A DNA stretch of 59,520 bases from Candidatus Saccharimonadales bacterium (GCA_035480955.1 DATIHF010000071.1:1-59520); one strand, 5' to 3'. Positions 27,439-49,887 are shown, numbered from the stretch's first letter. Notes: generated by a model from the letters alone, not told the origin. Translations and numbers: made by a program.

Positions 27439-27459
27439 GGGACCTCCTGATGGATAAGC

Positions 27460-27518: not shown

Positions 27519-27587
27519 GAAATTAGTTACTTTGCTAGGCAAAGAACTCGGCTTAGTTTTCCAGGCTAAGCTTGAAGAAAAGTGAAG

Positions 27588-27989: not shown

Positions 27990-28010
27990 TTCACACTCCT
28001 TGAGCATAGT

Positions 28011-28069
28011 TCGAGCTCATTTGGCTCAAACTCCAAAGTACTAAAAAAGCACCTGGTAACTGGCTTCAA
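28011..28069 (-). promoter_or_regulatory. Leader module 5 (degenerate HP1 plus HP2)
   Basis: Minus strand: TTGAAGCCAGTTACCAGGT (28051-28069) resembles CTTAAGCCAGTCTCA. HP2 is TTGAGC-CAAATGA-GCTCGA (28011-29), with the same loop as module 3 on a different stem. It starts 80 nt before the ATG at 27989. Confidence 0.35.
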
Positions 28070-28211
28070 ATGTATATTCTTCAGGGCAATGACTTGCAAT
28101 GACAGTTCTTTATACTTCAAACCCAGTTACTAGATGCCTTGATCTAGATAACTTGATCGCTGTGGCAGCTTCAAAAGTCAGCTGGCGATCTATTTAATTG
28201 TTAATGACAAA

Positions 28212-28240
28212 AGTATAGCACACTATCGGCCATTTGTCAA
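28212..28240 (-). promoter_or_regulatory. Extended -10 promoter (TTGACA-17-TGC-TATACT) at the edge of cassette C
   Basis: Minus strand reads gtacTTGACAaatggccgatagtgtgcTATACTttt. The -35 and -10 flanks are identical to the cassette A promoter. Confidence 0.6.
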
Positions 28241-33968: not shown

Positions 33969-35342
33969 ATGGATAAGAAAGAACTCTGGAACAGCGTTCT
34001 CGCTGAACTGCAATTAACAATTTCCTCGGCCAATTTTCAAACTTGGTTTCGTGGCAAAACTGAGATAGTCGAGCTTCAGGTCCCACTAGTCGTGGTGGGC
34101 TGCTCTTCACCTTACGTACGGGATTGGCTGGAGCAGCGCTATTTGGGTCAGATTAAAGGGGTGGTGGACCGCCTCATCGACCAATCGACCTCGATCACTT
34201 TCGTAGTTTCTCCTTCACTAAATGTACCAGCCACCAAGACCACTTCAAGCAAGACCGCCGAGGAAACCGAGACTCTTTTTGTTAAAGAAGACCTGGGTAA
34301 GCTTTCAGAAAAATTGACGACGGCCAAGCTCAGCCCTGGCTATACTTTTTCTAACTTTGTCGTCGGCGGAAGCAACCAACTTGCTTACGCGGTGGCCACC
34401 GCGGCCGCTGAGGATCCTGGCAAAGCCTACAACCCAATTCTTTTCTACGGTGGTGTGGGGCTGGGGAAAACCCACTTGATGCAATCAGTGGGCAACGAAG
34501 TAGCGCGGAAAAATAGCAAAGCTAAAATCCTTTACGCTACTAGTGAAGACTTTACCAATGACTTGATGGAAGCAATCCAAACTAAACGCACCCGGGACTT
34601 TCGTGACAAATACCGCTCTCTTGATGTTCTGCTGCTGGATGATGTTCAGTTTATTGCCGGCAGGGAGAGCACTCAGGAAGAGTTTTTCCACACCTTCAAC
34701 GCTCTTTATTCCTCCCACAAACAAATTATCCTCACTTCCGATCGCGAGCCCTCTGAGATTGCCAAGTTAGAGTCCCGTTTGCGAAGTCGCTTCAGCGGGG
34801 GGATGATCGCAGACATCCAACCCCCGGATACTGACATGCGCGAGGCGATACTAGAATCAAAAATAAAAAGGTTAAATATTGATATCCCAAGCGAAGTAGT
34901 CCACTACTTGGCCGGCTCGGTCGGAACCAACGTTAGAGAACTGGAGGGGAGTTTGACCCACTTAGCAACTGTTGCAAAGGTCAGACAAACGGATCTCTCC
35001 CTAGAGTTGGCTAAAAGTTTCGTCGACCAGAGGAAATCCCGCGCTCTTGCCAGTAGAGTCGAACCAAAAGAAGTTTTAGAAATTGTTTCCGACTACTTTA
35101 ATGTCAAACAAAGTGAGATCAAAGGCAGCAGCCGGGTTGCGAAAATTGTTTTACCCCGGCAGATTACGATGTATTTACTTCGCACTGATCTTGGCATACA
35201 GTATGAAAACATCGCCCAGTACCTAGGGGGCCGAGACCACTCAACCGTGATGCACGGAGTGGAGAAGATCGGGAAAAGTGTGGAAAGCTCGGACAAGTTT
35301 CGCGGATTAGTTGCGGATATCCGCGCCAAGCTTTACAACTAA
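33969..35342 (+). CDS. dnaA: Chromosomal replication initiator DnaA
   Basis: GGVGLGKTHLMQ, LLLDDVQF, and a C-terminal HTH (DHSTVMHG). Confidence 0.95.
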   Translation: MDKKELWNSVLAELQLTISSANFQTWFRGKTEIVELQVPLVVVGCSSPYVRDWLEQRYLGQIKGVVDRLIDQSTSITFVVSPSLNVPATKTTSSKTAEETETLFVKEDLGKLSEKLTTAKLSPGYTFSNFVVGGSNQLAYAVATAAAEDPGKAYNPILFYGGVGLGKTHLMQSVGNEVARKNSKAKILYATSEDFTNDLMEAIQTKRTRDFRDKYRSLDVLLLDDVQFIAGRESTQEEFFHTFNALYSSHKQIILTSDREPSEIAKLESRLRSRFSGGMIADIQPPDTDMREAILESKIKRLNIDIPSEVVHYLAGSVGTNVRELEGSLTHLATVAKVRQTDLSLELAKSFVDQRKSRALASRVEPKEVLEIVSDYFNVKQSEIKGSSRVAKIVLPRQITMYLLRTDLGIQYENIAQYLGGRDHSTVMHGVEKIGKSVESSDKFRGLVADIRAKLYN

Positions 35343-35508
35343 GTTACTTTTTCCACACCCTGTCCACAAAAGAGTAAACAGCACTCAAGCGCTCTTTTCC
35401 GGAGCAAATAAGGCCGAAAGCACAGGGTACACAGGTGTGGGTTATCAACTTTTCCACTGTCTCTACTACTGCTACTGTTTTAATAAGTAATAAATAAGTA
35501 ACAACATT
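35343..35508. other. Candidate oriC segment (degenerate DnaA boxes plus an AT-rich stretch)
   Basis: tttccacac, tgtccacaa, ttatcaact and tttccactg, followed by ttttaataagtaataaataagtaaca. Confidence 0.4.
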
Positions 35509-36618
35509 ATGGAAGCAAAAACTACTAAAATTCTCACTGAAAACTTAAAGACAGCGGTCAATATCGCTAACCGTTTTGTCTCCTTGCGCCCTTCAGTTGC
35601 CGCTCTCGGCAACATTTTATTAAAAAGCAGCAAGGGGAAGATTGAGTTCTTTTCGACCAACCTAGAGAGCTCGATCGCCCTAAGTGAGGTGGCAAGCGGA
35701 GAAGACTGGGAAACAACAGTTCCAGCTAAAATTTTTGTTGAGCTGGTCAACACCCTTAAAGAAAAGGAAACTAGCTTAGCGGTTGAAAAAGAAACACTGC
35801 AGTTAGTCAGTGGAGCGACCAAAGCAACTTTCAACACAATCGCTGCTTCCGAGTTTCCCACTATCCAGCTCTCCGGTGACAAGCTGAAAAAAGACCTTTC
35901 CCAAAAAACCCTCGCCGAGATAGTCGGTAAAATTGCCTTTGCCGCCACAGTTGAAGAGACCAAACCAGTGTTAACCGGCATACTCATTCGTAGTAAAGGA
36001 GGCAAAACCTTACTAGTCGCGACCGACAGCTATCGTTTGGCAATTGGAACTTTGAACGAGAGCCTTGGAGAAGAGGAGATGCTGGTGCCCGCCAAGACTT
36101 TGGTTGAGGCTCTCAAAATCGCCGGAGAGCTGCAAGAAGAGAGCATTGGTATCGGAACCTCCGAGGAAAACAACCAACTTCTTTTTGCTGGGGACAATTT
36201 CCAGATCGCCACCCGACTAATTGATGGAGTTTACCCAGCCTACGAGCAAATAATTCCGGACACTTTTGTCGCTTCAGTCAAAGTCAGCAAAGACGCACTT
36301 ACCGACGCTCTTAAAACCGCTTCAGTCCTTTCTCGGGACATTGGTAATGTCGTCAGACTAAAACTTAAAGCCCCACAACAACTAGTGATCGAAGGTGACA
36401 CAGCTCAAATTGGTCAAGCGGTCACCGAGGTGGAAGCAGAAGTCACCGGAGAGGAGCTTACTGTTGCCTTCAACTCAAACTTTCTTCTCGACGGGCTCTC
36501 TTCACTAAAAGAAGCTGAGGTGGAAATTAAATTTTCCGGAGTGCTCAAACCCGCCGTTTTTGAAAACAGTAAAAAAGATTTTAAATACGTAGTCATGCCA
36601 GTGAGAGCGCAACGTTGA
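35509..36618 (+). CDS. dnaN: DNA polymerase III beta sliding clamp
   Basis: Position after dnaA, 369 aa, three-domain pattern. Confidence 0.93.
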   Translation: MEAKTTKILTENLKTAVNIANRFVSLRPSVAALGNILLKSSKGKIEFFSTNLESSIALSEVASGEDWETTVPAKIFVELVNTLKEKETSLAVEKETLQLVSGATKATFNTIAASEFPTIQLSGDKLKKDLSQKTLAEIVGKIAFAATVEETKPVLTGILIRSKGGKTLLVATDSYRLAIGTLNESLGEEEMLVPAKTLVEALKIAGELQEESIGIGTSEENNQLLFAGDNFQIATRLIDGVYPAYEQIIPDTFVASVKVSKDALTDALKTASVLSRDIGNVVRLKLKAPQQLVIEGDTAQIGQAVTEVEAEVTGEELTVAFNSNFLLDGLSSLKEAEVEIKFSGVLKPAVFENSKKDFKYVVMPVRAQR

Positions 36619-36622
36619 AGCA

Positions 36623-37726
36623 ATGTTTCTAGAAAAGCTGCAACTCCTAAACTTTCGAAACCTCGCCAACCAAAAACTAGAATTCAAAAATTCCATTAAT
36701 GTAATCTATGGGGACAACGCCCAAGGAAAAACTAATCTGATCGAAGCAATTTACCTTCTTTCTGGGAGCCGCTCAATGAGAGCTAAAACAGACCACGAAC
36801 TAATTGCTTGGGGCAAAGAGAAAGCAAAAATCTCTGGTAAAGCTGACTTTTTGGATCTTGAACTCACTGTCTTCCCAAATCAGAAGAAACTCTTGATCAA
36901 TAAACAAGAAAAAAGACTAACTGATCTGATCGGTACCTTTCTAACCGTACTTTTCACGCCCGCTGAGGTTGAGATTGCTTCTGGATCGCCGGACCGGCGA
37001 CGCCGCTTTTTGGATCAGTTTGCCGCCAATCTTTCGCGAGAGTACTTAGTCTCTTTGGGCAAGTATCAAAAAGTTCTCCGCGCGCGCAATGGCCTCCTCT
37101 GGCAAATTAAAAACGGACGAGCGCATGACCTGAGCGTTTGGGATGAACAGTTGGCTACTCTTGCGGTTGAGATTTGGAAAAAAAGAGTCTCGTTAATTGA
37201 AGAGCTCAATACCGAGATAAAAACCGTGAGCCGAAAACTCCTCAGTGGGGATCTCAAGCTCTTTTACGAGCCGCCAATTGCAGTTGGTTCTACTAAAAAT
37301 ATGAGAGAGGAGTTTTTAAGACTGCTTCAAAAGAGCTCTTCTGAAGAAATAAGGAAAGCGCTCACCCAAATTGGTCCGCAAAGGGACGACTTTAAAATTA
37401 TTTTGGATTTAGAAAAAAACGACAAAATTGTTTCTAAAGACTTAGGGATCTACGGGTCACGCGGGGAGCAGCGCTCTGCGGTGATTTGCCTTAAGCTCGC
37501 GGAAATTGAGCTGCTCACCGCTGCGAAAGAAACTAGACCAACGCTTTTGCTCGACGAAGTGTTAGGCGAGCTAGATCCCAAACATCAGCAACTCTTAGTG
37601 CGCCAGATTCGTAAAGGTCAGGCTTTTTTAACTAGTGCCAACTACACTGAATTAAAAAAAATATTAGGAACCGGCTATAAAAGTTTTGAAGTGAAAGACG
37701 GAGCAATTACCCCGGTGGCTGACTAG
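36623..37726 (+). CDS. recF: DNA replication/repair protein RecF
   Basis: GDNAQGKTNLIEA (Walker A), LLLDEV (Walker B), SGGEQ-like RGEQRS. Confidence 0.9.
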   Translation: MFLEKLQLLNFRNLANQKLEFKNSINVIYGDNAQGKTNLIEAIYLLSGSRSMRAKTDHELIAWGKEKAKISGKADFLDLELTVFPNQKKLLINKQEKRLTDLIGTFLTVLFTPAEVEIASGSPDRRRRFLDQFAANLSREYLVSLGKYQKVLRARNGLLWQIKNGRAHDLSVWDEQLATLAVEIWKKRVSLIEELNTEIKTVSRKLLSGDLKLFYEPPIAVGSTKNMREEFLRLLQKSSSEEIRKALTQIGPQRDDFKIILDLEKNDKIVSKDLGIYGSRGEQRSAVICLKLAEIELLTAAKETRPTLLLDEVLGELDPKHQQLLVRQIRKGQAFLTSANYTELKKILGTGYKSFEVKDGAITPVAD

Positions 37727-39593
37727 GGGGCTGGCCCTCCGGTGGGTTCTGTGGTTCAGGGTTTTGTACCGGTTCGGGTGGTTCTTGTTGTGGTTGCTGC
37801 TGTTGCTGGGAGTTTAGCTCAGCTGGATTAGAGGTGATCAGCACATGTTCATGAGGGGCGGCCTGAACTCTGATTGCCACGTGGTTGCTGCCGGCAAAGA
37901 AAAGCCCCTCCCCAATATCCGCCGCTAACAGGAGATTTCTTTCCCCTTCCGACAAATAAAAAGTATCAACAATCTGATCCACACTGGCCGAGGACTGCTT
38001 GAGCAGAATTTGGATAGAGGAATTGGTCACGATCGCTTTACCGTAATCAGATACCAGGAAATCCTCTACGTCTTGGGTTACGGTAGTTAAACCCAGATAA
38101 TATTTCCGCGCCCTTTTTGCAATTGAGTAAACAAAAGAAGCACTGTCAGGGTGTTTCATCATATACCAAGCCTCGTCGATGATCAGAAGCCTTTTCTTGC
38201 GGTCCTTTTTAATTTTGGTCCAGATGTAATCAAGAATGATAAACATCCCGATTGGTCGTAGCTCATCTTCCAAATCACGAATAGAAAAAACTGTGAAAGT
38301 GTTTTTAATATCAATGCTTGAGGACTGATCAAAGATTCCCGCTAGTGAGCCTTTAATAAACTTCTCAATTCTCTCAGCCATGGTTCGAGCTTCTGGCTCT
38401 GCGCTGTTGAGCAAGACTTCGTAAAGATCTTCGAGCACTGGAGCAGGACGGTTTTGGGTCGCCGCGTCCGGAGTGATGCCCTTGAGTTTATAAGTGGTGA
38501 TGAGTGCGCGATCGAGTATCGCGTCTTCAGTGGCAGTTAAGTTGCCCAGAATAATTCTGAAGAGAGAGTGTAGGGAAAGAATTTTCAAGCCCAACTCGTT
38601 TTCCCCTTCAGTGTAGACACCAGAGAGATCAAAAGGGTTGATCTTGGAGCTCTCCTGACCAGAGAATTTAATGTACTCTCCTCCGATTGCGTCACAAAGA
38701 GTCTTATACTCATCTTCTGGGTCAATAATAATTATTTCTGTGCCAAGCATCAGAGAGCGCAAGGCTTCCAATTTGGTCATGTAACTTTTTCCCGCCCCGC
38801 TTTTTGCAAAAATCACACTGTTAGCGTTTTCTAGGCTGAAACGATCAAAGATGACGAGGGAGCCGTTGTGCTCGTTAATTCCGTAGAGAATCCCTTCATT
38901 GGCAGTCAGCTCTGAAGAAGTAAAAGGAAAAGTAGTTGCCAGAGAAGTGGTGTCCATGTTGCGGGTGACCAAAAGCTTATCGGTGAAAGTTGGCAGAGTC
39001 GTCTGAAAACCCATTTCCTGCTGCAGAGTAGCGTGTTTGGAGATGATCAAGAGAGAGCCAAGAGTCGACTCAATCTGTTTAGTGATAGCGTTGAGCTCTT
39101 CCAGACTTTCGGCGGGGATGGTGATATAGAAAGAAAATTGGAAAAACCTTTCGATTCCGGCGACGAGCTGCTCTTGCAAAGACTGCGCGTCCTCGAGAGC
39201 GATTCGTACGGCTGGGTCGATCACCCGCCCTTTTTCAAAGTCACCTTGAACAGTTGCCTCCATCTCGGCAATCTTCCGGCGCAAATCATCCAAAATACCC
39301 TTGGCCTCTACGGGGTAATAGTAAAAAGAAATCTCTAAGGTGTGGTCAAAGTTGATGATCGGGGCGAGCCAGTTGGCACCAACAAAACGGGGGTAGCCAC
39401 TAATAAACAAAGTCCGGTAGTAAGTCTCACCAACTCTGATGTGATCAAAATCTACCTGCAAAGCAGGGGGAGCGATAATGTCTTTTACATCAAACATTCC
39501 TCGCCCAAGAGTATTTTTAACTTTTTCACGAGTTTGGGCCAGCTCAAGATCTTCTTTAGTAGGCTGCTTTTTCTTGCCGCCGAACAAGGCCAT
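37707..39593 (-). CDS. VirB4/TrsE-family T4SS ATPase (C-terminal two-thirds)
   Basis: FAKSGAGKSY (Walker A), RLLIIDEAW (Walker B), YYRTLFISGYP block, Gln/Pro-rich tail. ATG at 39593 in a TGATG overlap with the upstream ORF (track TTG at 39596). Confidence 0.8.
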   Translation of the reverse strand: MALFGGKKKQPTKEDLELAQTREKVKNTLGRGMFDVKDIIAPPALQVDFDHIRVGETYYRTLFISGYPRFVGANWLAPIINFDHTLEISFYYYPVEAKGILDDLRRKIAEMEATVQGDFEKGRVIDPAVRIALEDAQSLQEQLVAGIERFFQFSFYITIPAESLEELNAITKQIESTLGSLLIISKHATLQQEMGFQTTLPTFTDKLLVTRNMDTTSLATTFPFTSSELTANEGILYGINEHNGSLVIFDRFSLENANSVIFAKSGAGKSYMTKLEALRSLMLGTEIIIIDPEDEYKTLCDAIGGEYIKFSGQESSKINPFDLSGVYTEGENELGLKILSLHSLFRIILGNLTATEDAILDRALITTYKLKGITPDAATQNRPAPVLEDLYEVLLNSAEPEARTMAERIEKFIKGSLAGIFDQSSSIDIKNTFTVFSIRDLEDELRPIGMFIILDYIWTKIKKDRKKRLLIIDEAWYMMKHPDSASFVYSIAKRARKYYLGLTTVTQDVEDFLVSDYGKAIVTNSSIQILLKQSSASVDQIVDTFYLSEGERNLLLAADIGEGLFFAGSNHVAIRVQAAPHEHVLITSNPAELNSQQQQQPQQEPPEPVQNPEPQNPPEGQPPSQPPG

Positions 39594-40321
39594 CAACTAC
39601 CTTGCCTTTCTTCCTGAGGAGGTGGGGTGCTATTGCCCGTTGAGGGCTGAAGTGCTGGCTCAACTATTGGAGTAGTGTACTCGGTCGTGTTGAGAGCCGC
39701 CTTCTGCTCCAAGGAAACATCAGGGTTGTAGAGATCGTAGAAAAACTCAACTAGCTCTTCAGTGGACAGCAAGTGGGCTTTAACACCTATCCTGGAGACT
39801 TGTTTGGTGAGGTGATCGACCTTTGGTCCTAGATTGGTCTTGGCTTTTTCAAGAATATGCCATTTGTCCTCGACGGGACCTTTTTTCACAAACAAACTTG
39901 GAATCGTTAAGGCCTGCTGCAGAGTCGTCCCTGCAAAAGGAATAACAATATAGAAGCGCTTGTCCAAAATTTGGTTTTGTGAGACAAGCTGTTGGATAAA
40001 ACCAGCGTATAAGCTGATTTGACGAGCAATCTGTTGGTTGGGTGTTTTTTGTTGCGCTTCGGCGAGCCGGCCTAAATAGTTGGAAATATCCATTTTTTTA
40101 GAACGTACCAAAACCTGGATTGGATAGGTCAGAGAGTTGAGCAGAGCCGCGTAAGCAAAAATCATCGCGTCTTGCTCTCTTTCCGAAAGCAGATCAAAGT
40201 TCACTGCTGAAGTTTGTAAGATGGCGATCGCATTACCGTTTTTTAGAATTACAATATTATCGCGGATATCTTCAACGTCTAGGTGTTGTTGGGTTGAGGG
40301 TAGTGGTTTTTTGGCAGCCAT
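39593..40321 (-). CDS. T4SS-associated protein resembling the N-terminal segment of Gram-positive VirB4 homologues
   Basis: The block ILQTSAVNFDLLSEREQDAMIFAYAALLNSLTYPIQVLV resembles, from memory, the 'inf.L.s..eq..i...y..fLN' block at the N-terminus of Tn916 Orf16-type VirB4 proteins. Confidence 0.45.
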   Translation of the reverse strand: MAAKKPLPSTQQHLDVEDIRDNIVILKNGNAIAILQTSAVNFDLLSEREQDAMIFAYAALLNSLTYPIQVLVRSKKMDISNYLGRLAEAQQKTPNQQIARQISLYAGFIQQLVSQNQILDKRFYIVIPFAGTTLQQALTIPSLFVKKGPVEDKWHILEKAKTNLGPKVDHLTKQVSRIGVKAHLLSTEELVEFFYDLYNPDVSLEQKAALNTTEYTTPIVEPALQPSTGNSTPPPQEERQGS

Positions 40322-40340
40322 TTTTGTTTGGAAAGCTCTC

Positions 40341-43052
40341 CTAGCGAGCCTTAATTTCGACCGGAGGCATAATGGCTCCGGTAACGTCGATCTCTATAAT
40401 ATCAAAATCGTAACCGTCTTTCTCAAGCTCTAATGTGTAAACTCCGTCAGGAACCGGCGTCGAGAGAGCAAATTGCCCAATCTTGTTAGTCTTGAAGGCC
40501 CTCACTGGGTTACCGTCGTTGTCCTTAACAATTATAACTACGGTGTCTAAGAGCAGACCTCGATTGTCTTTAACGATACCATTAATCACATTAGGGATTT
40601 TGGGAGTATTGGGAAGCATTTTTCCGTAAGCTGGTTGAGCTTTGACCACTGGTCGAGAACGCTCCTCAAGTTTTTTTGCCTCCCTCTCCCTCTCTAAAGC
40701 TTTAATCTCCGCGATTATTCTAGCTTTTTCCTCTGGTGTTTTCTGAACCTTTTCTTGTTGTTTTAATACTTCAACCTGAGGATTGACCACACCAGTAGCA
40801 ATAGGTTGTGGTTGTGCTGGAGGTGAGGTTGGAGCGGCTGTTGCAGGTGGTTTCTCACCAAGTCTAGAAAGCATTGATTGAAGCTCTAAGTTGACTTTGC
40901 GGCGGCTGGCAGTAGCCTCAATTTCATTATACTGGCGGGAAATACTGGTTTGCTGCTCCAGATTTTGAAGTTTTTGCATCATGGCGCTTCGTTCCTCACC
41001 CGAGAGTTGATCAAGTTCTTTGTTACCCACCGTGGTTAACGAGGATTTCAGCTGGGTCATTTTGGTTTTGAGAGATTCGTCCGTGACATCAGCTTCCGCT
41101 GGTTCTTTCTGCTCTACCTTTTGCTCTGCCGCCTCAGCTTGCTCCTTGGCTTTCTTTGCGGCTTCCTCTTTAGCCTTAATCACTGATTCTTTGACCGCCT
41201 CTTCTCGGGCCGCTGTCTCGAGGATTTGTCTCTCGATATCATTTTGACCACTAACCGTTGCCGCAGTCGCTACCGTTGGGAGATTTTCCTTTGGCTTGGC
41301 AGTTGTCGAAACCGGAATCGCGGTAATATTTAAAGCTGCTTCTGGGTTACCGGGTAAGACCTTAGGTTGTCCAACCACAATATTAGCGGGAACCTCTTTA
41401 GTCACACCCTTTTCTATCCCCTGATTAGAAGAAGTCAAATTCACACTCGCAGAAGCAGAACCTTGTTTGGCCAGTGCTTCCGAGACTAGTTTTTCAATCA
41501 TTCCTGAGTCTATCTCAGAAGTCTTTTTGTCTACTTCCAACCGAGCCTTTTCTTTGGCAACTTCCGCTTCGACGATTTTTTTGACTGCTTCTTGATCTAG
41601 AGATTGAGGCTGGGCTTTGAGGGCCTCGTTGGCAGCTTGTTTCAATTGCTCAGGATTTGGAGGCAAGGTTTTTTCTTTAATAACTTCCGTTTTCTCAACC
41701 ACCGGAGCAGGATTGGTCACCGACGTGTTCCAGGTCGGGCCAGCGCTTGAAGTAGCCGCAGTAGAGCTTACTTGTGGTTGAGTTTGTGTTGGAGCTGTGG
41801 TTGCTGTCGGAAGCGGTTGAGAGATAGGTAGCTTTGGTTCTGCTGGTTTGGCAATCTCGGCTGGTTTGGGAGCAGCCTCAAACTTAATTTCCAGCTCTTT
41901 GGGTTTGTGATGAAGTTTTTCGTGGCGGGCCCGGTGGCCTTCCAAACCTTCCACCTTATCCCCTAACCAATCAGTTTTCTGTTTCAAGTATTTCAAAGCA
42001 ATTGTGTGGCTGTTGACTAGATCAGTTAGCGAGCCCCTCCAGGTTTGAACCGCCTCCATGACTTTCTGATCGTAGTCAAGCTGTTCTGAGAGAGCCGTTA
42101 GGGATTTCTGATTTCGCTCCTTCTCCAGCTGCAGAAAAGTTTGGTCCAGGTGAGAAACCTCTTTAGTCAAAGTTTCGATTTCTTGCTCTAATTTAGTGAT
42201 ATGGCTGGCAAACTCTTCTTTGGGTGGCTCTTTTGGTGCTTCCTTAACTTTTTGTACCACAACAGGCTCAGGTATCACTGTTTTAGGCACGCTAGCCACC
42301 TCTGGTCTCACCTCCACAGGCTTGGGTGTCTGGGCTTGGGGCAGTGCGGCTGGGCTCACTTGGGGGAGCGGGGCTGGCCTCACTGGAGCTAGTACAGGTT
42401 GGATCATTGGTTGAACAACTGGGGCAACAGGCTGCGGAGGTGTTTGAAGCTGAACCTGTGGCAACGGGACCTTCTTGATGCCGCCAGGAGCTTTGGCAGG
42501 CTCGGCAGGGAGGTTTTTCTGCTTAGTGATCTCGGAAGCGATTTTCTGCTTTAGTTGTGAAAAAAGTTCTTGATTGATCTGTTCGATTTGCTTGCGAAGC
42601 TCCTCTGAACGATACTTTGCTTGTTCAGGAGTAAGCTGGACTACTTCTGGTTTTTTGATGGCTGGTTGAGTTTGGGGAGCTCTTTTTGTCTCCGTCAGGC
42701 TCTGTACTTGCGGAGTAGTGGGAGAGTTTACTTTCGTGCGTATTTGTTCGTGAAGGCTGCTACCGAGTTGAATGACCCTTTCACCTCGGATTGAAATCTG
42801 ACCATTTTGACCCAAAGCAGAAGTAGAGACCGCGCGGTTTTGAGTGTTTTTGACAGGACGAACGTAAAGGTTGGAGCCTCCGGAGGCTAGAGTTGCCGCG
42901 GGTTTGAAGCTGACTTCTGAGGCCAAAGTAGCTTGGGAGGAAGCTTTGTGCAACACTGAGCGTGGTTTTTCCGCTGGCAAGTATCGGCTGCTCTCTGGTG
43001 CTTGGTTAACCTTGCTTCTTAAAGTTGCATTAACCCCAGTCTGTGAATTCAT
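40341..43052 (-). CDS. Large Pro/Gln/Lys-rich coiled-coil protein (903 aa) with a C-terminal CarboxypepD_reg-like beta-sandwich
   Basis: Long low-complexity PxP and EK-rich stretches. C-terminus GIVKDNRGLLLDTVVIIVKDNDGNPV...GVYTLELEKDGYDF. Confidence 0.55.
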   Translation of the reverse strand: MNSQTGVNATLRSKVNQAPESSRYLPAEKPRSVLHKASSQATLASEVSFKPAATLASGGSNLYVRPVKNTQNRAVSTSALGQNGQISIRGERVIQLGSSLHEQIRTKVNSPTTPQVQSLTETKRAPQTQPAIKKPEVVQLTPEQAKYRSEELRKQIEQINQELFSQLKQKIASEITKQKNLPAEPAKAPGGIKKVPLPQVQLQTPPQPVAPVVQPMIQPVLAPVRPAPLPQVSPAALPQAQTPKPVEVRPEVASVPKTVIPEPVVVQKVKEAPKEPPKEEFASHITKLEQEIETLTKEVSHLDQTFLQLEKERNQKSLTALSEQLDYDQKVMEAVQTWRGSLTDLVNSHTIALKYLKQKTDWLGDKVEGLEGHRARHEKLHHKPKELEIKFEAAPKPAEIAKPAEPKLPISQPLPTATTAPTQTQPQVSSTAATSSAGPTWNTSVTNPAPVVEKTEVIKEKTLPPNPEQLKQAANEALKAQPQSLDQEAVKKIVEAEVAKEKARLEVDKKTSEIDSGMIEKLVSEALAKQGSASASVNLTSSNQGIEKGVTKEVPANIVVGQPKVLPGNPEAALNITAIPVSTTAKPKENLPTVATAATVSGQNDIERQILETAAREEAVKESVIKAKEEAAKKAKEQAEAAEQKVEQKEPAEADVTDESLKTKMTQLKSSLTTVGNKELDQLSGEERSAMMQKLQNLEQQTSISRQYNEIEATASRRKVNLELQSMLSRLGEKPPATAAPTSPPAQPQPIATGVVNPQVEVLKQQEKVQKTPEEKARIIAEIKALEREREAKKLEERSRPVVKAQPAYGKMLPNTPKIPNVINGIVKDNRGLLLDTVVIIVKDNDGNPVRAFKTNKIGQFALSTPVPDGVYTLELEKDGYDFDIIEIDVTGAIMPPVEIKAR

Positions 43053-43669
43053 CCGCTACCCTCCCCGGCGGAACGGTTTTTCGCACTATCGACGACCTCG
43101 GCCATTCTCTGGAAACCTACAGTAGCAGGATTAAACTCTCCTTCTTTAGGTTGTAGGCTTGGAGCGGCAAAAACCTGGCTTTCGCTAGTGGCTGAGTTGA
43201 GGTTGAGGTTAGTCAGACGCCTTTCCTCGTTGATATCAAGAATACTTTTGGAAGCACCCTTGCGGTGGGTCTGCAAATAAAGCTTCAACTTACTGGGATC
43301 AGAGTAAATTTTGGGTTCCACGGCTGTCGCTTGGCGGTGCAGGTAAATCGAGAATTGAGGCTCCAAAAAGCCAATCTCTTTAGGCTCGTGGTGCCACACC
43401 CGTGTGTTCGGAGAGTAAACCGTCTTGAAAAAAGCCGCAATCCAGCGTTCAAAAGGCATATTGTTAAAACTAACAAAAGCTAAAGCGATCGCAAAGAGTC
43501 CTACTGGACCACCCACGAGCAAAACAATAGGAAAAGGTAATTTTGAAGAATAAAGAATAAAAATAAAGATCGCGGCGGCGGCTAAGTAGCCAAATTGCCG
43601 AAGGGTCAAGAAACCAATTAATTTGAACTCAAATCCAGTAATATTTTGTGGAACAGGATGGCTTTGCAT
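43049..43669 (-). CDS. PrgI/VirB3-like two-TM T4SS protein
   Basis: MQSHPVPQNITGFEFKLIGFLTLRQFGYL followed by 2 TM. Internal ATG at 43669 preferred. 4-nt overlap with the next gene. Confidence 0.5.
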   Translation of the reverse strand: MQSHPVPQNITGFEFKLIGFLTLRQFGYLAAAAIFIFILYSSKLPFPIVLLVGGPVGLFAIALAFVSFNNMPFERWIAAFFKTVYSPNTRVWHHEPKEIGFLEPQFSIYLHRQATAVEPKIYSDPSKLKLYLQTHRKGASKSILDINEERRLTNLNLNSATSESQVFAAPSLQPKEGEFNPATVGFQRMAEVVDSAKNRSAGEGSG

Positions 43670-43799
43670 AGATAGACTTTTTGGCTTTCTTTTGTGTGCA
43701 CTAATTATGCCTAAACTGTAGCTAAAAAACAACCCGTAACAAAGTGGATCAATTACCCTCTGATAAACCACTCACTGAAAGTAAATGATAGTTATAGGG

Positions 43800-43828
43800 T
43801 TGACACTAGCTTTGTTTTGTGCTAAAAT
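43800..43828 (+). promoter_or_regulatory. Extended -10 promoter (TTGACA-17-TGC-TAAAAT) heading cassette D
   Basis: gggTTGACActagctttgttttgtgcTAAAATcgc. It shares TTTTGTGCTAA with the cassette B promoter. Confidence 0.6.
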
Positions 43829-43856
43829 CGCTCAACAATTTTAAGGAGCAGTTTTT

Positions 43857-43916
43857 GTGGATAAATTGATTATTAAACTCATTAAGAAGAAGACCTCAGG
43901 AGGAATCCCGATTTAA
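43857..43916 (+). CDS. Candidate leader micro-ORF, 19 aa (MDKLIIKLIKKKTSGGIPI)
   Basis: AAGGAG with an 8-nt spacer, then GTG. The stop lies in the loop of the first leader hairpin. Confidence 0.3.
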   Translation: MDKLIIKLIKKKTSGGIPI

Positions 43917-43987
43917 ATCGGGAGGCCCAGCGAAAGCTTGGGCAGCAGGCTTCTGAGGACATTATGTCACCGGAAGCCTGTTTTTTT
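43894..43987 (+). terminator. Leader structure: three-way junction followed by an intrinsic terminator
   Basis: P1 CCTCAG (43894-99) / CTGAGG (43953-58). Hairpins TCCCGAT-ttaa-ATCGGGA (43906-23) and GCCCAGC-GAAA-GCtTGGGC (43925-43). Terminator CAGGCTTC (43946-53) / GAAGCCTG (43973-80) plus T7 (43981-87). Confidence 0.55.
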
Positions 43988-44259
43988 GTGAGTAAAAGGT
44001 ACTTTTACAAGTTAATAGCTTGTTTTGAAAGGAAAGAAACTCCTTGAGTCTCGTCTTGGGGTATTTGGGTTGAAGAAAATTCAGCCTAGCTACCCCTTGA
44101 TGAGATTGCATATTGCATTTCATCTGAGGGGTTAATCGTGCAACCATCTCCCGTGCGCTCGCTTTGCGTGCTGCTGGGAAGGTGTTTTACGGTAACCGTT
44201 TCGGGTGGTGCAAATGCACCTTAAGTCTGACGACTTTGGATCGTCAAGGAGGATCAGTT

Positions 44260-47200
44260 ATGACCATGGATTACGATGACGAGTATGGTGCTCCAGGACA
44301 AAATCCGCGAGACACCAAGGTAATCAGCCTCAGGGACTACGGCGAGGCGACTAAGGGCAAGTTCGATAACTTTTGCCGAGAGAATGTCGCTAAGCGAGCC
44401 GTTACCACGAGGATTGAGGATAGGGATATCCCATTCAACTGGGGACGCGGCGGCAACACCGTTTACCTAGATATGGAGACTGGTGAGCCAGTTACCTACG
44501 AAGGTGACTGGACTTTCAAAGAGAAGGCATTCACTGACCAAAGGACAGGTAAAATTACCCTGATCCAAGAGGTCGAATACGAGAGAGCCTTGAACGTCTT
44601 CGTTTGTGACCTTTGGGACCCCGAGATCGTAGGGACACCCTTCGCTCGGGCACCTTGGGACAGCAGCCGTGTTCGCGTTCTTAGTGAAGAGGAAGTGGAA
44701 CACAATATTCGGTTGTTGAGCGACGATCAAGAGGCTCGGGAAAAGGCCTATATGGGCAACAGCGCCGACGCAGGCCGGCGTTTGCGACCGCTCCTTCGGT
44801 CGTCCCGGAAGATGGTTCAGACAGACGAGCTTTCCGATACTCTTCCTCAAGAAGAGCGTCGGAACCATCACATGGAGAGCCGTCTTAAGGACCACCGAAA
44901 GCTTCGTGAGCTGCATCGGCAGAGGAGACTGTATCCAGACGATTTGGTAGAGTACCCGATGACTGGCTGTAGCCCCTTGGGACGGCCAATCGATGACTCG
45001 GACCAAACCGGCTGGCTCGATGCACTCTATCGGAGTGCAATCAGGCAACGCCGCGGTAAGAAAGACCCTCTTGGTCTGAACCAGAAGCGGGGCAGAGACC
45101 TTCCACCAGGCCTCTTTTATGAAGGTGGCAAGTACAAGGTCCGTATCGGGTCTCTCAACCTAGACGGGCTTCGAGTCCTTGCCCACAACGCAGCTGAGCG
45201 CGAAAGCCGCACCTCCAAAGAGTGTTACGAGCAACTCATGGAGGCCTTGGTCCACAAAATGGTCCGAGGAAAAGTGGGTGAAAATGTGGATGAACCGCTC
45301 GAAGCGTGCGAAATCATGGCTCGTTACGGTGAGCAAGGCCTTCGTACTGGGTCGAGTAGGTTCTACGAGGAAATCTTCAACCCGAACTCGGACACCTACC
45401 GTATCTACCCAGACGATGCTGCTCGTGGACGAGCGTGGCAGCGCCCGAAGGATCCGGACGGCGGTTATGCGTACTTACCGCTGTTTCATCGAATGCAGAG
45501 GATCCTCCACAAAGCCTACCATGTAGATCCGGTAGTTACTCCGGTCGACCAATACAACCCGTTCTGGACAACGGCGCAGTTTGAGGTTCGCTACGGAGGA
45601 CAGAACCGTAAGGACTTCCCGGTTACTGGTGAGCCGTACGACCAAATCCAACAGGAGAAGGCGTATTGGTACACTAAGGACCTGCATGTTCCTAACCGCC
45701 TGCACCGCCACCGCGCATGGTTGGATCTGATAAATGGGTTCATCGAAACCAACTTCTACCGGACCTACCCTTCGGAGCAGTACCGGTTTCGCAAAACTCT
45801 GTCTAGGCTTTTCGGAGCCCATGACAAGAAGAGCTTTCTCAGCAAAATGAGAGCGCTTCTAAAGATTCGCGATCTGACCATTCACGTTATCTCCTTGCCA
45901 ATTCCAATTTGGCGCTTTGACGGGCGTCAGTGGAGGCTCGAGCTAGATAACAGTACCTTTGATTATTTCGCGGAGGGTATCGAAGCCTTTCGTGATTGGG
46001 TCCGGATGATTGCCGAGTGGCAGCAAGTAAAGGCAATGCTCAACGCCTTTGCTGCCATGAACTTCACACGGGTCACTGCTGATCAAGGGCGCACGCGCGA
46101 CTTTGGAGGCATTTGGAATGCAGTGCCAATTTGGCAATGCGATGCCTTCTATTTCTCCTGGTTGTTTGCCAACTCCAGACCTGGTGTCAAAGACCAGAAC
46201 GGCATGCCAATGTTTGAAGGGGATAAAAACCCTGATGGCACTTGGATCTACAACCATAACTTCCGGCGTGTCTGGAAACGTCGTGCACCTATGCCTGTCA
46301 AACCCACGAGGGACCGCCCTTCCATCTTGCCCGGGGAAACCCAGGAAGAGTGGCAGGAGCGGGCTGATTTGTGGGACTCCAAGTATCCCGCCCGGCCAGT
46401 TCGGCCGACGCTGAATCCTGGAGAAACCGCAGATGCTTTCGTGGTTCGGTTGAAGGACTTCATCAAACTCCTCGGTGATTGGGAAAAGCAAACCGAGGAC
46501 AGCTGGATCGCAGACATCAAAGAGTACCAGTCAGCCATCAATGCGCGCGTCGCAATCATGGGCTGGGCCTGGCACGATCGCGACCCACTTGCAGATATGC
46601 CGCACGACACAGTCTTGCGAGCTTTGTCAGTCTATCGTTGGGCCGACTGGCTAGACATGATTGGTGTCGGAAGAGGTTTCAACAGCCAGCTCGGCGACGG
46701 TTTAGTGTCGGACCTCACGACGTTCCTCAAGGAACAGAGTTCCAAGGTTCGAAACTACCGCCACGAGACTGAGGCAATGGAATCTGACGAAGGTGCCCGT
46801 TATGACCCGCAGGGTTTTTGGGACTACCTCGGCGGCATCATTCGACCCCACATCGAGAACTTCCTCAACTACCGACTCTTCGGTACGTTTGGTGAAGAAC
46901 CTGGACCCAAGTTCCTGGACACGCTTTTCGATGGGACTGACGTTTACAACGAAAAGTCGACCCGGGTGAGAAACCAAATCAACCTGATGTGGCAAGAGGC
47001 CCCACTGAAGGGAATCAAGCGGCGGGTTCTCAAGGTCTGGGATGACAGTCTTTCCGACCACGTCATCCACATCCGGCCTCTCATCCGGCGCTTTCTTGAC
47101 GGTTTGCCGGTGGGAGTACTGGATCGTCTCCAGCCTCTCATTCGCGGCCTCAACCGGCGTTCGGACCGACGGATCCGGGAGTGGGCACAACACCTCTCTG

Positions 47201-47736
47201 TGGGCCGAACCCACGGTAAGCGTGCCTTCACCACAGCCCAGAGGTTTATTGACGAGGGCTACGGTACCAACACCGGCGAGCAGCTCGAGGAAATCGAAAA
47301 CGGCCAGCCCCGTTTGCTCACGGTTGCGGAATCCGAGCAGAAGCGTCAGGATGACCTTGGCTTCACAACCTGGATGAACTCTCAGTATGACAAGGCCTCT
47401 TACTTCATTAAGGGCTTGATCATTAGGGAGCGAAACAAGGCTTGGGTCGACTCGGGCGAAGGGGCGGAGCACGTGATCAAGGCTATCGAGAGTGGTCTCT
47501 ACCACGAGATCGCCTACGAAATCCTTGAGATCGCCAGCCACCGCGGCCTCATTCTGAAGTCGATCGACTGGTTCCCATCCTTGGATGAGTTCCGGAAGAT
47601 GTACAAGGAAACGGGTCTGGAGGATAAGTTTGAGGATCGCTGCAAGGCTCTGCTGGGGACAGCGGAATTCCGAGCAGTTATCGAAGGCTATCTGTTCCCG
47701 GACATGAAAGCCGCCATCGATCCACTAGCAGCGTAA
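44260..47736 (+). CDS. Large orphan protein, 1158 aa (Trp/Arg/Asp-rich, no TM, no recognised domain)
   Basis: Uninterrupted ORF. ATG at 44260 preceded by AAGGAGG with a 7-nt spacer (track start 44164 is upstream and has no RBS). GC-rich codons unlike the neighbouring genes. Confidence 0.8.
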   Translation: MTMDYDDEYGAPGQNPRDTKVISLRDYGEATKGKFDNFCRENVAKRAVTTRIEDRDIPFNWGRGGNTVYLDMETGEPVTYEGDWTFKEKAFTDQRTGKITLIQEVEYERALNVFVCDLWDPEIVGTPFARAPWDSSRVRVLSEEEVEHNIRLLSDDQEAREKAYMGNSADAGRRLRPLLRSSRKMVQTDELSDTLPQEERRNHHMESRLKDHRKLRELHRQRRLYPDDLVEYPMTGCSPLGRPIDDSDQTGWLDALYRSAIRQRRGKKDPLGLNQKRGRDLPPGLFYEGGKYKVRIGSLNLDGLRVLAHNAAERESRTSKECYEQLMEALVHKMVRGKVGENVDEPLEACEIMARYGEQGLRTGSSRFYEEIFNPNSDTYRIYPDDAARGRAWQRPKDPDGGYAYLPLFHRMQRILHKAYHVDPVVTPVDQYNPFWTTAQFEVRYGGQNRKDFPVTGEPYDQIQQEKAYWYTKDLHVPNRLHRHRAWLDLINGFIETNFYRTYPSEQYRFRKTLSRLFGAHDKKSFLSKMRALLKIRDLTIHVISLPIPIWRFDGRQWRLELDNSTFDYFAEGIEAFRDWVRMIAEWQQVKAMLNAFAAMNFTRVTADQGRTRDFGGIWNAVPIWQCDAFYFSWLFANSRPGVKDQNGMPMFEGDKNPDGTWIYNHNFRRVWKRRAPMPVKPTRDRPSILPGETQEEWQERADLWDSKYPARPVRPTLNPGETADAFVVRLKDFIKLLGDWEKQTEDSWIADIKEYQSAINARVAIMGWAWHDRDPLADMPHDTVLRALSVYRWADWLDMIGVGRGFNSQLGDGLVSDLTTFLKEQSSKVRNYRHETEAMESDEGARYDPQGFWDYLGGIIRPHIENFLNYRLFGTFGEEPGPKFLDTLFDGTDVYNEKSTRVRNQINLMWQEAPLKGIKRRVLKVWDDSLSDHVIHIRPLIRRFLDGLPVGVLDRLQPLIRGLNRRSDRRIREWAQHLSVGRTHGKRAFTTAQRFIDEGYGTNTGEQLEEIENGQPRLLTVAESEQKRQDDLGFTTWMNSQYDKASYFIKGLIIRERNKAWVDSGEGAEHVIKAIESGLYHEIAYEILEIASHRGLILKSIDWFPSLDEFRKMYKETGLEDKFEDRCKALLGTAEFRAVIEGYLFPDMKAAIDPLAA

Positions 47737-47744
47737 GTATAGTA

Positions 47745-47783
47745 GGCCACCCAGAGGAGCAATCCAAAGGGTGGTCTTTTTTT
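47745..47783 (+). terminator. Intrinsic terminator closing cassette D
   Basis: GGCCACCC-16 nt-GGGTGGTC followed by T7. The T-run overlaps the stop of the convergent VirB6-like gene. Confidence 0.7.
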
Positions 47784-49887
47784 ATGATTTTTCACGTTCT
47801 GGATGCTCGACATTCTTTATTTCTTCACTATCTGCTGGCTCCACCCCTGGTTCTGGAGTTTTTTGAACCCCAGTAACAAACCGATCCCGCACGTCATCGA
47901 AGTCAGCGTGAGTGACTGGTCCAAAAATTGGATTAACATTCTTTGGATTCGCGGCTCTGCCTTGAAATCTTGCAGTGTCGTACTCTTTCAAAATCGCCGC
48001 GTCTCGATCTGCTTTGCTCGTCACCCTAGTGTTACCAGACGAGGTTCTTCCTGCCCCTACATCAGGAGAAGCGAAAAATTGCGCGGCTCGAGCGAAAGGA
48101 CCTTTTTTAGCGACCACGGCAGTGGTCGTAGTTCCAGTAGCCGGATCAAAGTTTGACTCACCCAATCCCCAACCTCCTCTACCCAAAGCACCTTTAAAGG
48201 CATTGCCCCAACCCCTTGTCGTATTTACCAACTGTTGACCACCTTGAATGCCCTTACTGACGCTACCAACTGTCTGCAAGCCACTACCGACTGTCGATGC
48301 TAGAATCAAAGGAGTCGGGCCTTTGGATTTATCTCTGACCCCAAACAAATCATCCAGCGCGTCGGGCACCTTGGCGGCAAAGTAGAGAATCCCCAAGCCG
48401 ATCAAAGGACCGATATTCACAAATAAATCAGCGCCTCCTAACGGTGGTGGAGCAGTGATACTGCCATCACCAGTGAGACTAAATACTTTACCAACAGTTA
48501 AAAAGTAAGCGCCGAGATAGGCAATTACTAGAATCGCGGGGAAGGTTAAGACCGAGGCGGCCATCCGTTTGAACCAGTTGACCGTAATACTCTCAAACCC
48601 GGGTATCGCTCCAACTAGGAAAAAGAAAGGACTGAAAACAGTCAAAACTAGCATGGTGACATAGCGGACGAGAAGCTTCCAAAAAAGCAAGATTGCCAAT
48701 AAAAAGATCCCAATGCGGATTATTAGTTCAAACCCTAGAGCCGCTAGAAGCGCAATACCAGCGGCCAACCAACCCAACCCCCCAGTAAGTAAACCTCCAA
48801 TTAGTCCACCAGCAGCAAAGATACCCAAAAAACCAGGCCAATTAAGTACTGGCTTAGCAAAAAAGGCAAATACCGGCAACCAAGTTAGCGAGTTGTGGTC
48901 TGGGGTTAGCCTATTGATGTAACCCAAATCTCCGAAGTAACGAGTCACGATACTCACTGATAAATAGATAAAATCAACAAATAAGCCCGCTAAAGCAAAA
49001 CTAAAAGTGATCAAAATTAAAGCGACCGCAATTCTGGGTAAGGAATTCGTCGCGGTGACTACTGTCTTGGGATCGAGACGGCGCCTAAGCATTACCATGA
49101 AGCCAATTATCACTAAAATGATCACTGAGGCAATGTAAGCTAAGTCTCTAATTTTTTGCCAAACTCCTTTGATAACATCACCGATGGTGGTGATCCCCTG
49201 ACTTTCAGTAGCCTGAGCATTGGCACTACCAATGCCGAGAATATTGTTTTTGGCGATATTACCGACTTCAGTAATTGGATTTACCTGAGGGACATTGGCA
49301 TAAATAGAGTTGTAACTTCCATCTAAGATATTTAAGGCATTGACTGGTATTTTTGCTTCCGGAGCCATCAAGGGATCAATCTGAGAAAGCTGTTTTTGGG
49401 CTTCAGCACACTTAGTTTGAGTGTCACCTGTGGTTCCCTCGCAAGCATTAGCTGTACTCACCCCGCCAACTGCTAAAAGTATGTGGACAGGAAACGTAAT
49501 ACATTTAAAAATTAGTTCAAGGAGCTTACCACTCATAAAAGTCCAAAGGGTCGAGACTATTTCTCCAGCTAGGCTGCAGCCCCCTCCAAAAATAAAGCCA
49601 ACTCCGGGGACATCACCTAAAACATCACATACATTAGCAACTTGACCAGTCTCAGTCGTACCGTTGGGTAAAGTAACGGTTTGTGGTGTAGGTGTATTTA
49701 CAGGAAGGTTGGTTGTTGGTGTTGTTGTCGGAGCAACTTGGCTGGGTTGAGAGGTTTGAGTAGGTGAGACAGGTTGAGTTTGAGCGGCAGTTTGTGGCAC
49801 TAAAGAGAATAGGGAAAAAACTAGCAGTACAAAATAGACTAGAGCATTACGGAGTAGGTGAAGCGTTTGTTTGGTTAAAAAACTCAT
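47782..49887 (-). CDS. Polytopic membrane protein, VirB6/TrbL-like T4SS channel candidate
   Basis: Signal peptide, Thr/Pro-rich linker, Cys-containing ectodomain, at least 6 TM, Gly-rich cytoplasmic tail. Call rests on T4SS context. Confidence 0.5.
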   Translation of the reverse strand: MSFLTKQTLHLLRNALVYFVLLVFSLFSLVPQTAAQTQPVSPTQTSQPSQVAPTTTPTTNLPVNTPTPQTVTLPNGTTETGQVANVCDVLGDVPGVGFIFGGGCSLAGEIVSTLWTFMSGKLLELIFKCITFPVHILLAVGGVSTANACEGTTGDTQTKCAEAQKQLSQIDPLMAPEAKIPVNALNILDGSYNSIYANVPQVNPITEVGNIAKNNILGIGSANAQATESQGITTIGDVIKGVWQKIRDLAYIASVIILVIIGFMVMLRRRLDPKTVVTATNSLPRIAVALILITFSFALAGLFVDFIYLSVSIVTRYFGDLGYINRLTPDHNSLTWLPVFAFFAKPVLNWPGFLGIFAAGGLIGGLLTGGLGWLAAGIALLAALGFELIIRIGIFLLAILLFWKLLVRYVTMLVLTVFSPFFFLVGAIPGFESITVNWFKRMAASVLTFPAILVIAYLGAYFLTVGKVFSLTGDGSITAPPPLGGADLFVNIGPLIGLGILYFAAKVPDALDDLFGVRDKSKGPTPLILASTVGSGLQTVGSVSKGIQGGQQLVNTTRGWGNAFKGALGRGGWGLGESNFDPATGTTTTAVVAKKGPFARAAQFFASPDVGAGRTSSGNTRVTSKADRDAAILKEYDTARFQGRAANPKNVNPIFGPVTHADFDDVRDRFVTGVQKTPEPGVEPADSEEIKNVEHPEREKS

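Follow-up and report, generated by a model that had tools for sequence, protein, structure and literature searches.

A hypervariable family of large soluble proteins in a fixed slot of a Microgenomatia type IV secretion locus

Here, we describe a gene at positions 44260-47736 (+ strand) of a 59,520-nt stretch of DNA from Candidatus Saccharimonadales bacterium (GCA_035480955.1, DATIHF010000071.1:1-59520), called the window below, with all coordinates counted over the whole stretch. The gene lies in a type IV secretion system (T4SS) locus close to dnaA, and belongs to a previously undescribed family that is a fixed occupant of one T4SS slot, invariant in presence and position and hypervariable in sequence. 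PMC12102498 (Quinonero-Coronel et al., 2025) reports the T4SS adjoining dnaA in Patescibacteria as mostly lacking a relaxase, rarely having an adjacent type IV coupling protein (T4CP), and having no known substrate. In the sole Patescibacteria species tested genetically the T4SS is essential, and its role has been called completely unknown (PMC11665869). Interest in the family stems from the lack of any known substrate or specificity factor of a Patescibacteria T4SS. An earlier reading of the window from its sequence alone (the sequence-only reading) had described the gene as an inserted orphan from another genetic background; this description is replaced here by that of a locus-intrinsic, allele-swapped gene that is rich in G+C at third codon positions (GC3) throughout its family.

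The gene, its family and its slot

The frame is open from its first TTG at 44164 to 47736 (+), and the functional start is the ATG at 44260, 7 nt after the Shine-Dalgarno (SD) sequence AAGGAGG (44246-44252); this start is backed by four close orthologues that open likewise with MTMDY or MVMDY in the alignment. The coding sequence (CDS; 44260-47736, +) specifies a 1158-aa soluble protein of a new family with an acidic N-terminus and the C-terminus ...DPLAA, and this product exceeds every other in the window in length, as the sequence-only reading had it. The same reading was right in seeing no transmembrane (TM) segment (maximum Kyte-Doolittle hydropathy over 19 residues, KD19, of 1.26), no Walker A, HExxH or DEAD motif (motif scan), and a richness in Arg (9.8% vs 3.5%), Trp (2.8% vs 1.2%), Asp (7.9% vs 4.6%) and Tyr (4.0% vs 3.0%). 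Net charge is about neutral, with 171 Lys and Arg vs 178 Asp and Glu. The gene has 54.5% G+C and a GC3 of 0.63, and its neighbours have 44-48% G+C and a GC3 of 0.39-0.51 (about 0.44); the 60-nt line at 46261 does hold 62% G+C (37/60) as had been counted, but the backbone stands at about 44-48% and not at the 37% given for it. A claimed internal duplication comes down to a pair of 14-aa motifs sharing RP..L.PGET, which exists in the protein but is weak, invisible in the DNA and placed inside an indel-rich linker. This variable linker, with its two RP..PGET..(W/F) motifs, spans 46309-46440 (+; translation and orthologue alignment), and AlphaFold confidence is low at residues 640-680, directly upstream of it.

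Relatives of the protein were found at two depths, so that the gene is no orphan. A word-indexed search of 5.8 billion proteins returned 4 relatives with 39-59% identity, and a hidden Markov model (HMM) scan of 1.84 billion cluster representatives, using the alignment of close relatives, returned 35 proteins, 12 of them below 1e-30; together these make up 4 close and about 30 distant relatives. Repeating the word-index search with a 25-member alignment gave the same five proteins and none further. Family members are 817-1166 aa long with identities down to about 17%, and the full-length distant members (817-1111 aa) are just 17-25% identical to the 1158-aa query. Pattern scans of GTDB genomes, JGI metagenomes and IMG/VR gave no family match with the closest-subgroup motifs used; because the scans were limited to these patterns, they say little on distant members.

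Genomic context was readable for 12 loci (the window, L001, L002/L003, L004, L005, L040/L041, L042, L043, L044, L045, L046 and L047). All 12 have the order dnaA-dnaN-recF, then VirB4, TraC-like gene, large protein and PrgI, then leader and family gene, then the convergent VirB6-like gene and a pilin array, with the family gene opposite in strand to the VirB4 operon and behind a 600-900 bp gap. The slot is shared even by relatives at E = 1e-4 to 1e-5. The T4SS linkage suggested by the sequence-only reading is therefore borne out in every relative with readable context (12/12), and no relative within the clade carries the T4SS locus with the gene moved elsewhere. Two further suggestions, a recent insertion and a selfish cassette, are not supported: the gene holds one slot in 12/12 loci, with no flanking repeats, integrase or tRNA beside it, and is for these reasons an intrinsic component of the locus. 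The features of a genomic island or integrated mobile element are likewise missing, with no flanking repeats and no recombinase among the neighbours; the only tRNA in the window lies at 14.5 kb.

In other Microgenomatia lineages the equivalent slot, upstream of VirB4, is taken by a soluble ORFan of unrelated appearance and 1004-1365 aa, whose gene converges with the VirB6-like one (L006, L007, L008, L011, L013, L022, L023 and L026, from Curtiss-, Woese-, Davies- and Levybacteria and other metagenome-assembled genomes, MAGs). These ORFans show no similarity to the family by hmmsearch or hhalign and mostly none to one another, and have no Pfam domain and no GC3 excess.

Around the gene, the sequence-only reading placed the neighbours correctly. 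It is flanked by PrgI (43049-43771, -) and by a polytopic VirB6-like gene (47782-49887, -), whose convergent 701-aa product has 10 TM-like segments in the window copy and is called VirB6-like by position. Upstream are dnaA, dnaN and recF (33969-37726, +), followed by the VirB4/TraG-P-loop ATPase, the TraC-like protein, a 903-aa protein and PrgI (together 37707-43771, -), and beyond the VirB6-like gene are a 728-aa protein, six tandem T4SS_pilin genes and a SpoIID protein. Neighbours match the PrgI, TraG P-loop and T4SS_pilin profiles (Pfam/NCBIfam), and the window VirB4 is 71-72% identical to that of Candidatus Curtissbacteria MAGs, with other Microgenomatia next. The locus is an oriC-proximal T4SS, similar to the FATA type of mating-pair formation systems (MPF-FATA), of a clade of ultrasmall Microgenomatia bacteria (candidate phyla radiation, CPR/Patescibacteria).

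Two neighbouring regions have traits of their own. The six tandem pilin genes (PF18895; 52724-55782, -) are divergent, and pilin arrays of such kind are reported for Microgenomatia and Saccharimonadia in PMC12102498. The protein between the TraC-like gene and PrgI (40341-43052, -) is 493-1035 aa long across the window and L001-L047, and only its CarboxypepD_reg-like C-terminal part is conserved, making it another fast-evolving component of the locus.

Promoter, leader and codon usage

The gene has its own promoter, leader and terminator, as the sequence-only reading had proposed: a near-consensus promoter, a leader of about 425 nt and a terminator hairpin were all found. The promoter (TTGACA, 17-nt spacer, TG-extended TAAAAT; 43800-43828, +) agrees with the consensus at 11/12 positions with TG. 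Its -35 and extended -10 are kept in 8 pattern-scanned loci plus L046 and L047, making 10, and L004 shows both in the alignment; L045 is cut off upstream of the promoter region. The leader is kept in nine aligned loci. An upstream open reading frame (uORF) with a GTG start and 19 codons, MDKLIIKLIKKKTSGGIPI followed by a stop (43857-43916, +), has its own SD AAGGAG at 43843-43848, and a uORF of 17-22 codons is found at the same place in 7 translated leaders (window, L001, L002, L005, L041, L042 and L044), with the core L-I-K-K-K-T-S-x-G-P-P in the closer loci.

The last uORF codons run into a predicted transcription attenuator (43894-43987, +; folding, and compensatory changes in 7 loci). Here an antiterminator helix, P1, pairs 43894-43902 with 43950-43958, its 5' strand lying within those codons, and a competing terminator stem pairs 43946-43955 with 43970-43980 before a run of seven T at 43981-43987. 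Compensatory changes affect 13/23 pairs of the terminator stem across the 7 loci, and the nascent RNA ending before the terminator 3' arm folds into P1 in 7/7 loci; the full RNA folds into the terminator. All elements of a ribosome-mediated attenuator are thus predicted in 7/7 loci bearing the segment. A second, structured domain of about 210 nt follows (44040-44252, +; RNAalifold consensus), in which a distal anti-SD CUCCUU (44040-44045) pairs with the SD AAGGAGG of the gene and closes conserved helices, such as 44048-44059 with 44094-44105; of the 66 pairs that RNAalifold predicts from 6 loci, 24 have compensatory changes. A comparison of the leader with Rfam gave no family at gathering score and chance-level matches only (E > 0.6). 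By computational prediction with covariation support, the leader would carry sequence elements to gate both transcription and translation. At the other end of the gene, an intrinsic terminator lies between the convergent genes (47744-47784, +), with a hairpin at 47744-47777 (-19.6 kcal/mol, z = -4.0) followed by seven U.

Between PrgI and the family promoter, L004 (396-782), L047 (6835-7212) and L042 (9305-9517) each have a small accessory gene inserted. Those in L004 and L047 are bAvd/23S_rRNA_IVP four-helix-bundle genes and the one in L042 is a DUF2283 gene, with no reverse transcriptase (RT) nearby.

High GC3 is a conserved trait of the family and not a mark of recent transfer. The family gene has a GC3 of 0.51-0.72 in 12/12 loci vs 0.30-0.48 in most neighbours, and because this excess persists across alleles only 17-29% identical, the recent acquisition from a different genetic background that had been suggested does not account for it. 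The excess is even along the whole CDS and stops exactly at the CDS ends. It reflects a shift to G/C-ending codons (AAG 0.72 vs 0.24, TTC 0.65 vs 0.28, AAC 0.81 vs 0.49, CGG 0.26 vs 0.07), and relative synonymous codon usage (RSCU) of the 1158-aa gene correlates with that of host genes at just 0.14-0.25. High-expression codon bias was rejected as a cause, GroEL, GroES and L25 being ordinary in usage, and a by-product of a recombined block is unsupported, as the VirB6 tail that is replaced together with the gene has a normal GC3. Candidate causes are selection on mRNA or on decoding and, with the normal GC3 of that tail speaking against it, GC-biased conversion tied to recurrent recombination.

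The window holds a second GC-rich block (24200-28240, -; 0.50-0.61 G+C) of ORFan genes for products of 183, 274 (alpha/beta-hydrolase), 186 and 139 aa, with codon usage like that of the 1158-aa gene (RSCU r = 0.81) and unlike that of the genome remainder (r <= 0.08). The block is headed by the same promoter type (TTGACA-N14-TGTGCTATACT, 28240-28212). Its 183-aa ORFan has no relative among 5.8 billion proteins, and over 70 aa it weakly matches family residues of about 485-550 (14.6 bits). The TTGACA-N14-TG(T/A)TGCTA-type promoter has 4 matches in the window vs 0.06 expected. Two further copies (21046-20760, - and 2511-1950, -) are each followed by a short GC-rich open reading frame (ORF), of 26 aa (MRYLATTPWIAKRIFDNITDGGASPW) and about 50 aa (MSRNSQSYKQF...), and a strong hairpin with a T-run; these units are possible small-protein or small RNA (sRNA) cassettes, and probably the other cassettes mentioned in the sequence-only reading.

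Fold, modules and allele replacement

Sequence searches of the 1158-aa protein against Pfam, NCBIfam, PHROGs, PADLOC and PDB sequences gave no match, either with the single sequence or with a 25-member profile, and Pfam gave none for the 25 family members. AlphaFold2 with 35 sequences yielded a mostly helical model with several alpha/beta inserts (predicted local distance difference test, pLDDT, 78.4; predicted template-modelling score, pTM, 0.73). All structure results rest on this model, a run with only 4 sequences (pLDDT 38) being unusable. Foldseek found no significant match to it in PDB (best E = 0.29) or BFVD (best E = 0.089), with TM-scores all below 0.1; matches to GyrA/ParC cores were faint and non-significant (E = 2-5). 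Neither sequence nor predicted structure therefore assigns the protein to a family, in keeping with the sequence-only reading, and the family may offer a new fold.

Comparisons with particular protein classes were likewise negative. Profiles of T4SS components (VirB1-11/VirD4; MPF-FATA Prg/Pcf/Trs/Tra) gave no significant match in Pfam/NCBIfam. As a coupling protein (VirD4/TcpA) or T4SS ATPase the protein has no [AG]x4GK[ST] motif, no TM segment, no AAA/P-loop Pfam match and no structural match, and as a relaxase (MOB) it has no HUH/His-triad motif, no Pfam/NCBIfam match and nothing by Foldseek; its only HxH, HRH at residue 482, is non-conserved. Judged as a polymorphic toxin, it has the reverse polarity, with a conserved C-terminus and a variable N-terminus, and no toxin domain (Pfam). 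There is no small immunity-type gene downstream, since the next gene is the convergent VirB6-like gene. A diversity-generating retroelement was also looked for, and no RT was found in any locus and no template- or variable-repeat-like (TR/VR-like) repeat in the window, despite the bAvd-like gene in L004 and L047.

Conservation peaks at residues 1-100, 500-650 and above all 750-1150. The best-kept residues are mainly Gly, Pro, Arg and Trp, with the polar residues E575, R578, R831, Y833, E836, D849, H937, R939, D969 and R971, and the conservation profile holds no recognisable catalytic signature among the conserved residues. The most conserved part is a C-terminal module of about residues 895-1158 (46942-47733, +; conservation profile and the pair P0028/P0029), with the motifs MW..QP, HxRP, LNRxSDxR, EGYG...G, W...Q.DKA and GL.P.IA; many distant relatives fit only the C-terminal part of the profile. 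The proteins P0028 and P0029, from other samples, are 100% identical over their last 300 residues and about 30% identical over N-terminal parts of about 570 aa, and so are a clear natural intragenic chimera that defines this module. N-termini of family members are strongly acidic. Ala-Ala stands at the C-terminus (LAA, VAA, RAA and similar) in 12/25 full-length members vs about 0.7% expected from 8.6% Ala; such an ending resembles an ssrA-type C-terminal degron, or could be an export signal. For the class of T4SS-translocated effectors, the conserved C-terminal module, the Ala-Ala ends and the 12/12 T4SS linkage offer a circumstantial basis.

Identity between family proteins does not correlate with identity between flanking proteins (Spearman 0.04-0.21, not significant). 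The pair closest by its flanks, L001 and L042 (VirB4 92%, DnaN 67%, RecF 70%, PrgI 78% and VirB6-like protein 55% identical), has family proteins that are 26% identical and belong to separate subgroups. Their DNA keeps an identity of about 75% over VirB4, PrgI and the leader until about 75 nt before the start codon; this drops to about 30-40% over the entire CDS and the first approximately 500 nt at the VirB6-like 3' end, beyond which it is back at about 75%. The window CDS can be aligned with that of L001 (0.55-0.75 identity) and not with that of L042 (0.33-0.47), and its VirB4 is 88% identical to both. Since allele identity is out of step with the flanks and the DNA breakpoints are sharp, the CDS is swapped as a cassette: deeply divergent alleles (about 25-30% identity) have been exchanged between close genomes by block replacement that includes the C-terminal tail of the VirB6-like protein. 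In this respect the foreign look that the sequence-only reading saw in the gene has a real basis, as the allele phylogeny is at odds with the flanks and the CDS is block-replaced between close relatives.

The soluble C-terminal tail of the VirB6-like protein, encoded at the 3' end of its gene (47782-48380, -), is inherited with the large-protein allele, as judged by the L001/L042 divergent block and the tail alignment. Over alignment columns 781-840 the tail is 48-52% identical in 3/4 pairs of the same allele group (just 29% between the window and L002), and 10% identical both for L001 with L042 and for the window with L042. The soluble tail tracks the allele group and not the rest of its own protein.

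Function and relation to known systems

From these results we infer that the gene product is a T4SS-linked accessory or substrate protein outside every known family. Tentatively, and with somewhat less than an even chance in our judgement, it is a dedicated substrate or host-specificity factor of this T4SS. The conserved C-terminal module (about the last 265 residues) would dock on the machine, probably on the VirB6-like tail, the variable N-terminal two-thirds would act on or recognise the host cell, and the leader would keep synthesis in check until opened by a translational or physiological cue. Support for a substrate or specificity role comes from the T4SS slot in 12/12 loci, solubility, the lack of an enzymatic motif, hypervariability, allele replacement, modularity, co-segregation with the VirB6 tail, the attenuator and anti-SD, and the context given by PMC12102498 and PMC11665869. 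Several points weigh on the other side. Secretion itself is predicted from genes and context, and the locus has no T4CP gene through which a substrate could be recruited. To be present without exception in a single slot is commoner for machine parts than for effectors, and a structural role would likewise agree with the similarly sized soluble ORFan that other Microgenomatia have there. As the two genes adjoin at their 3' ends, linkage alone could account for the VirB6 tail being inherited with the allele. A substrate or specificity factor also leaves the conserved GC3 excess unexplained.

The main rival, which we hold to be rather unlikely, casts the protein as a structural or adaptor subunit of the T4SS in the cytoplasm. 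Bound to the VirB6-like tail, it would serve as a docking platform in place of the missing coupling protein, and its fast evolution would follow from that of its partner. Its invariable position in 12/12 loci, the soluble 1004-1365-aa protein in the equivalent slot of Curtiss-, Woese-, Davies- and Levybacteria loci, the co-segregation with the VirB6 tail and the lack of an adjacent T4CP, in the window annotation as in PMC12102498, all fit such a subunit. Its divergence, however, is far faster than that of VirB4, the TraC-like protein or PrgI, an NTPase motif is missing, and a machine part needed in fixed stoichiometry would not usually be expressed separately and under heavy gating, as predicted here. 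To our knowledge, no known monoderm T4SS (pCF10, pIP501, ICEBs1) contains a soluble core subunit that reaches about 1000 aa, and the component list of PMC12102498 has none either.

Two further explanations are both improbable. A nucleic-acid-processing factor, such as a very divergent relaxase, a DNA-uptake or a DNA-handling protein, would suit systems that are mostly without a recognisable relaxase and in which very different relaxases may await discovery (PMC12102498), and would suit a protein that is rich in Arg, Trp and Tyr, has a conserved R-x-Y-xx-E motif at residues 831-836 and gives faint, non-significant Foldseek matches to GyrA/ParC cores; yet it has no HUH/His-triad, no Pfam match to a relaxase, primase or nuclease and no significant structural match, its net charge is about neutral, and its extreme sequence turnover is atypical of DNA enzymes. 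Cassette-like replacement and intragenic mosaicism, the uptake of accessory genes by the PrgI-leader region (bAvd/IVP, DUF2283) and the codon usage common to the ORFan block at 24.2-28.2 kb would all agree with a passenger of a defence, anti-defence or toxin-like kind that sits in a recombination hotspot and has no role in secretion, but there is no PADLOC or PHROGs match and no partner immunity-like gene, within the clade the gene is never outside the T4SS slot and never missing from it (12/12), and the promoter (10 scannable loci) and leader (nine aligned) are kept together with the CDS. That the gene is foreign and recently acquired, or that the assembly is chimeric, for which the G+C content, the GC3 and the low RSCU correlation with host genes would speak, is effectively excluded: anomaly, slot and leader all recur in independent assemblies from many samples, mobile-element boundaries are absent, and GC3 is uniform along the CDS up to its exact ends.

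A broader proposal builds on the substrate or host-specificity factor and is, taken as a whole, unlikely at present. The Patescibacteria T4SS would have its cargo, or a determinant of its host range, in this family. The proteins, of about 1000 aa and of a new fold, would fit into the VirB6-like tail by their C-terminal module, and their N-terminal part would pass to a host bacterium. Alleles and their matching tails would be shuffled among strains as specificity cassettes, and the family would belong to a GC3-rich class of host-interaction genes with strong promoters of the same type, several with leader or terminator structures of their own. As a soluble, locus-intrinsic, hypervariable protein with predicted gated expression, the family protein is a concrete, testable candidate for T4SS cargo or for the matching of episymbiont and host. 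It also provides a natural case of allele-cassette exchange in reduced genomes and an undescribed, covariation-supported leader RNA, and its gene-specific codon anomaly, kept across deep divergence, argues against equating atypical G+C content with recent transfer.

The locus is of the same type as the Patescibacteria T4SS near dnaA described by Quinonero-Coronel et al. (2025; PMC12102498), which have VirB4, TrsD/TraC-like proteins, PrgI, a divergent VirB6, Peptidase_M23/VirB1-like proteins and VirB2-like pilin arrays beside dnaA and dnaN, and no relaxase. That paper catalogues known components and shows unassigned genes in grey; a large soluble protein, its family, allele swapping and a leader are not described in the part available. 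In common with the trp, his and pheA leaders, the leader here combines a short uORF behind an SD of its own, antiterminator and terminator helices that exclude each other, and a U-tract, the uORF lying over the antiterminator 5' strand. Unlike them, it controls a secretion-locus gene and not a biosynthetic operon, its uORF has a Lys-Lys-Lys (AAG) run and a Pro-Pro end in place of codons for an end-product amino acid, and a second, anti-SD-closed domain follows, with no Rfam match.

Similar to TraG of F/SXT (an extended VirB6) and its entry-exclusion partners, a variable C-terminal extension of a VirB6-family protein changes together with a partner protein, and the co-variation of tail and partner suggests specificity pairs. 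The partner here differs in being a soluble protein of about 1000 aa in the same cell, and not a small membrane protein of the recipient, and its interaction with the tail is putative.

CagA of the Helicobacter pylori cag T4SS has a comparable general plan: like the 1158-aa protein it is soluble, about 1100-1200 aa long and distinct in fold, and both are encoded by a separate transcription unit in a T4SS island and are fast-evolving and recombining. As the one dedicated substrate of its machine, CagA has a recognition region at the C-terminus; export is predicted here. There is no sequence or structural similarity between the two by PDB sequence search or Foldseek against PDB, although PDB holds CagA structures; the host here would be a bacterium and not a eukaryote, and the machine is of the monoderm MPF-FATA type and not diderm. 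The Xanthomonas T4SS effectors (X-Tfe) with XVIPCD also join an N-terminal working part that varies to a C-terminal module that is conserved, as in the chimeras that share one C-terminal module here, and their T4SS acts against or on other bacteria. They differ in that the family has no Pfam match to XVIPCD or to a toxin domain, and that each locus here has one gene in place of many dispersed effectors, without VirD4 in the locus or an immunity gene alongside. As a substrate or specificity factor, the protein would be CagA-like in its logic and X-Tfe-like in its polarity.

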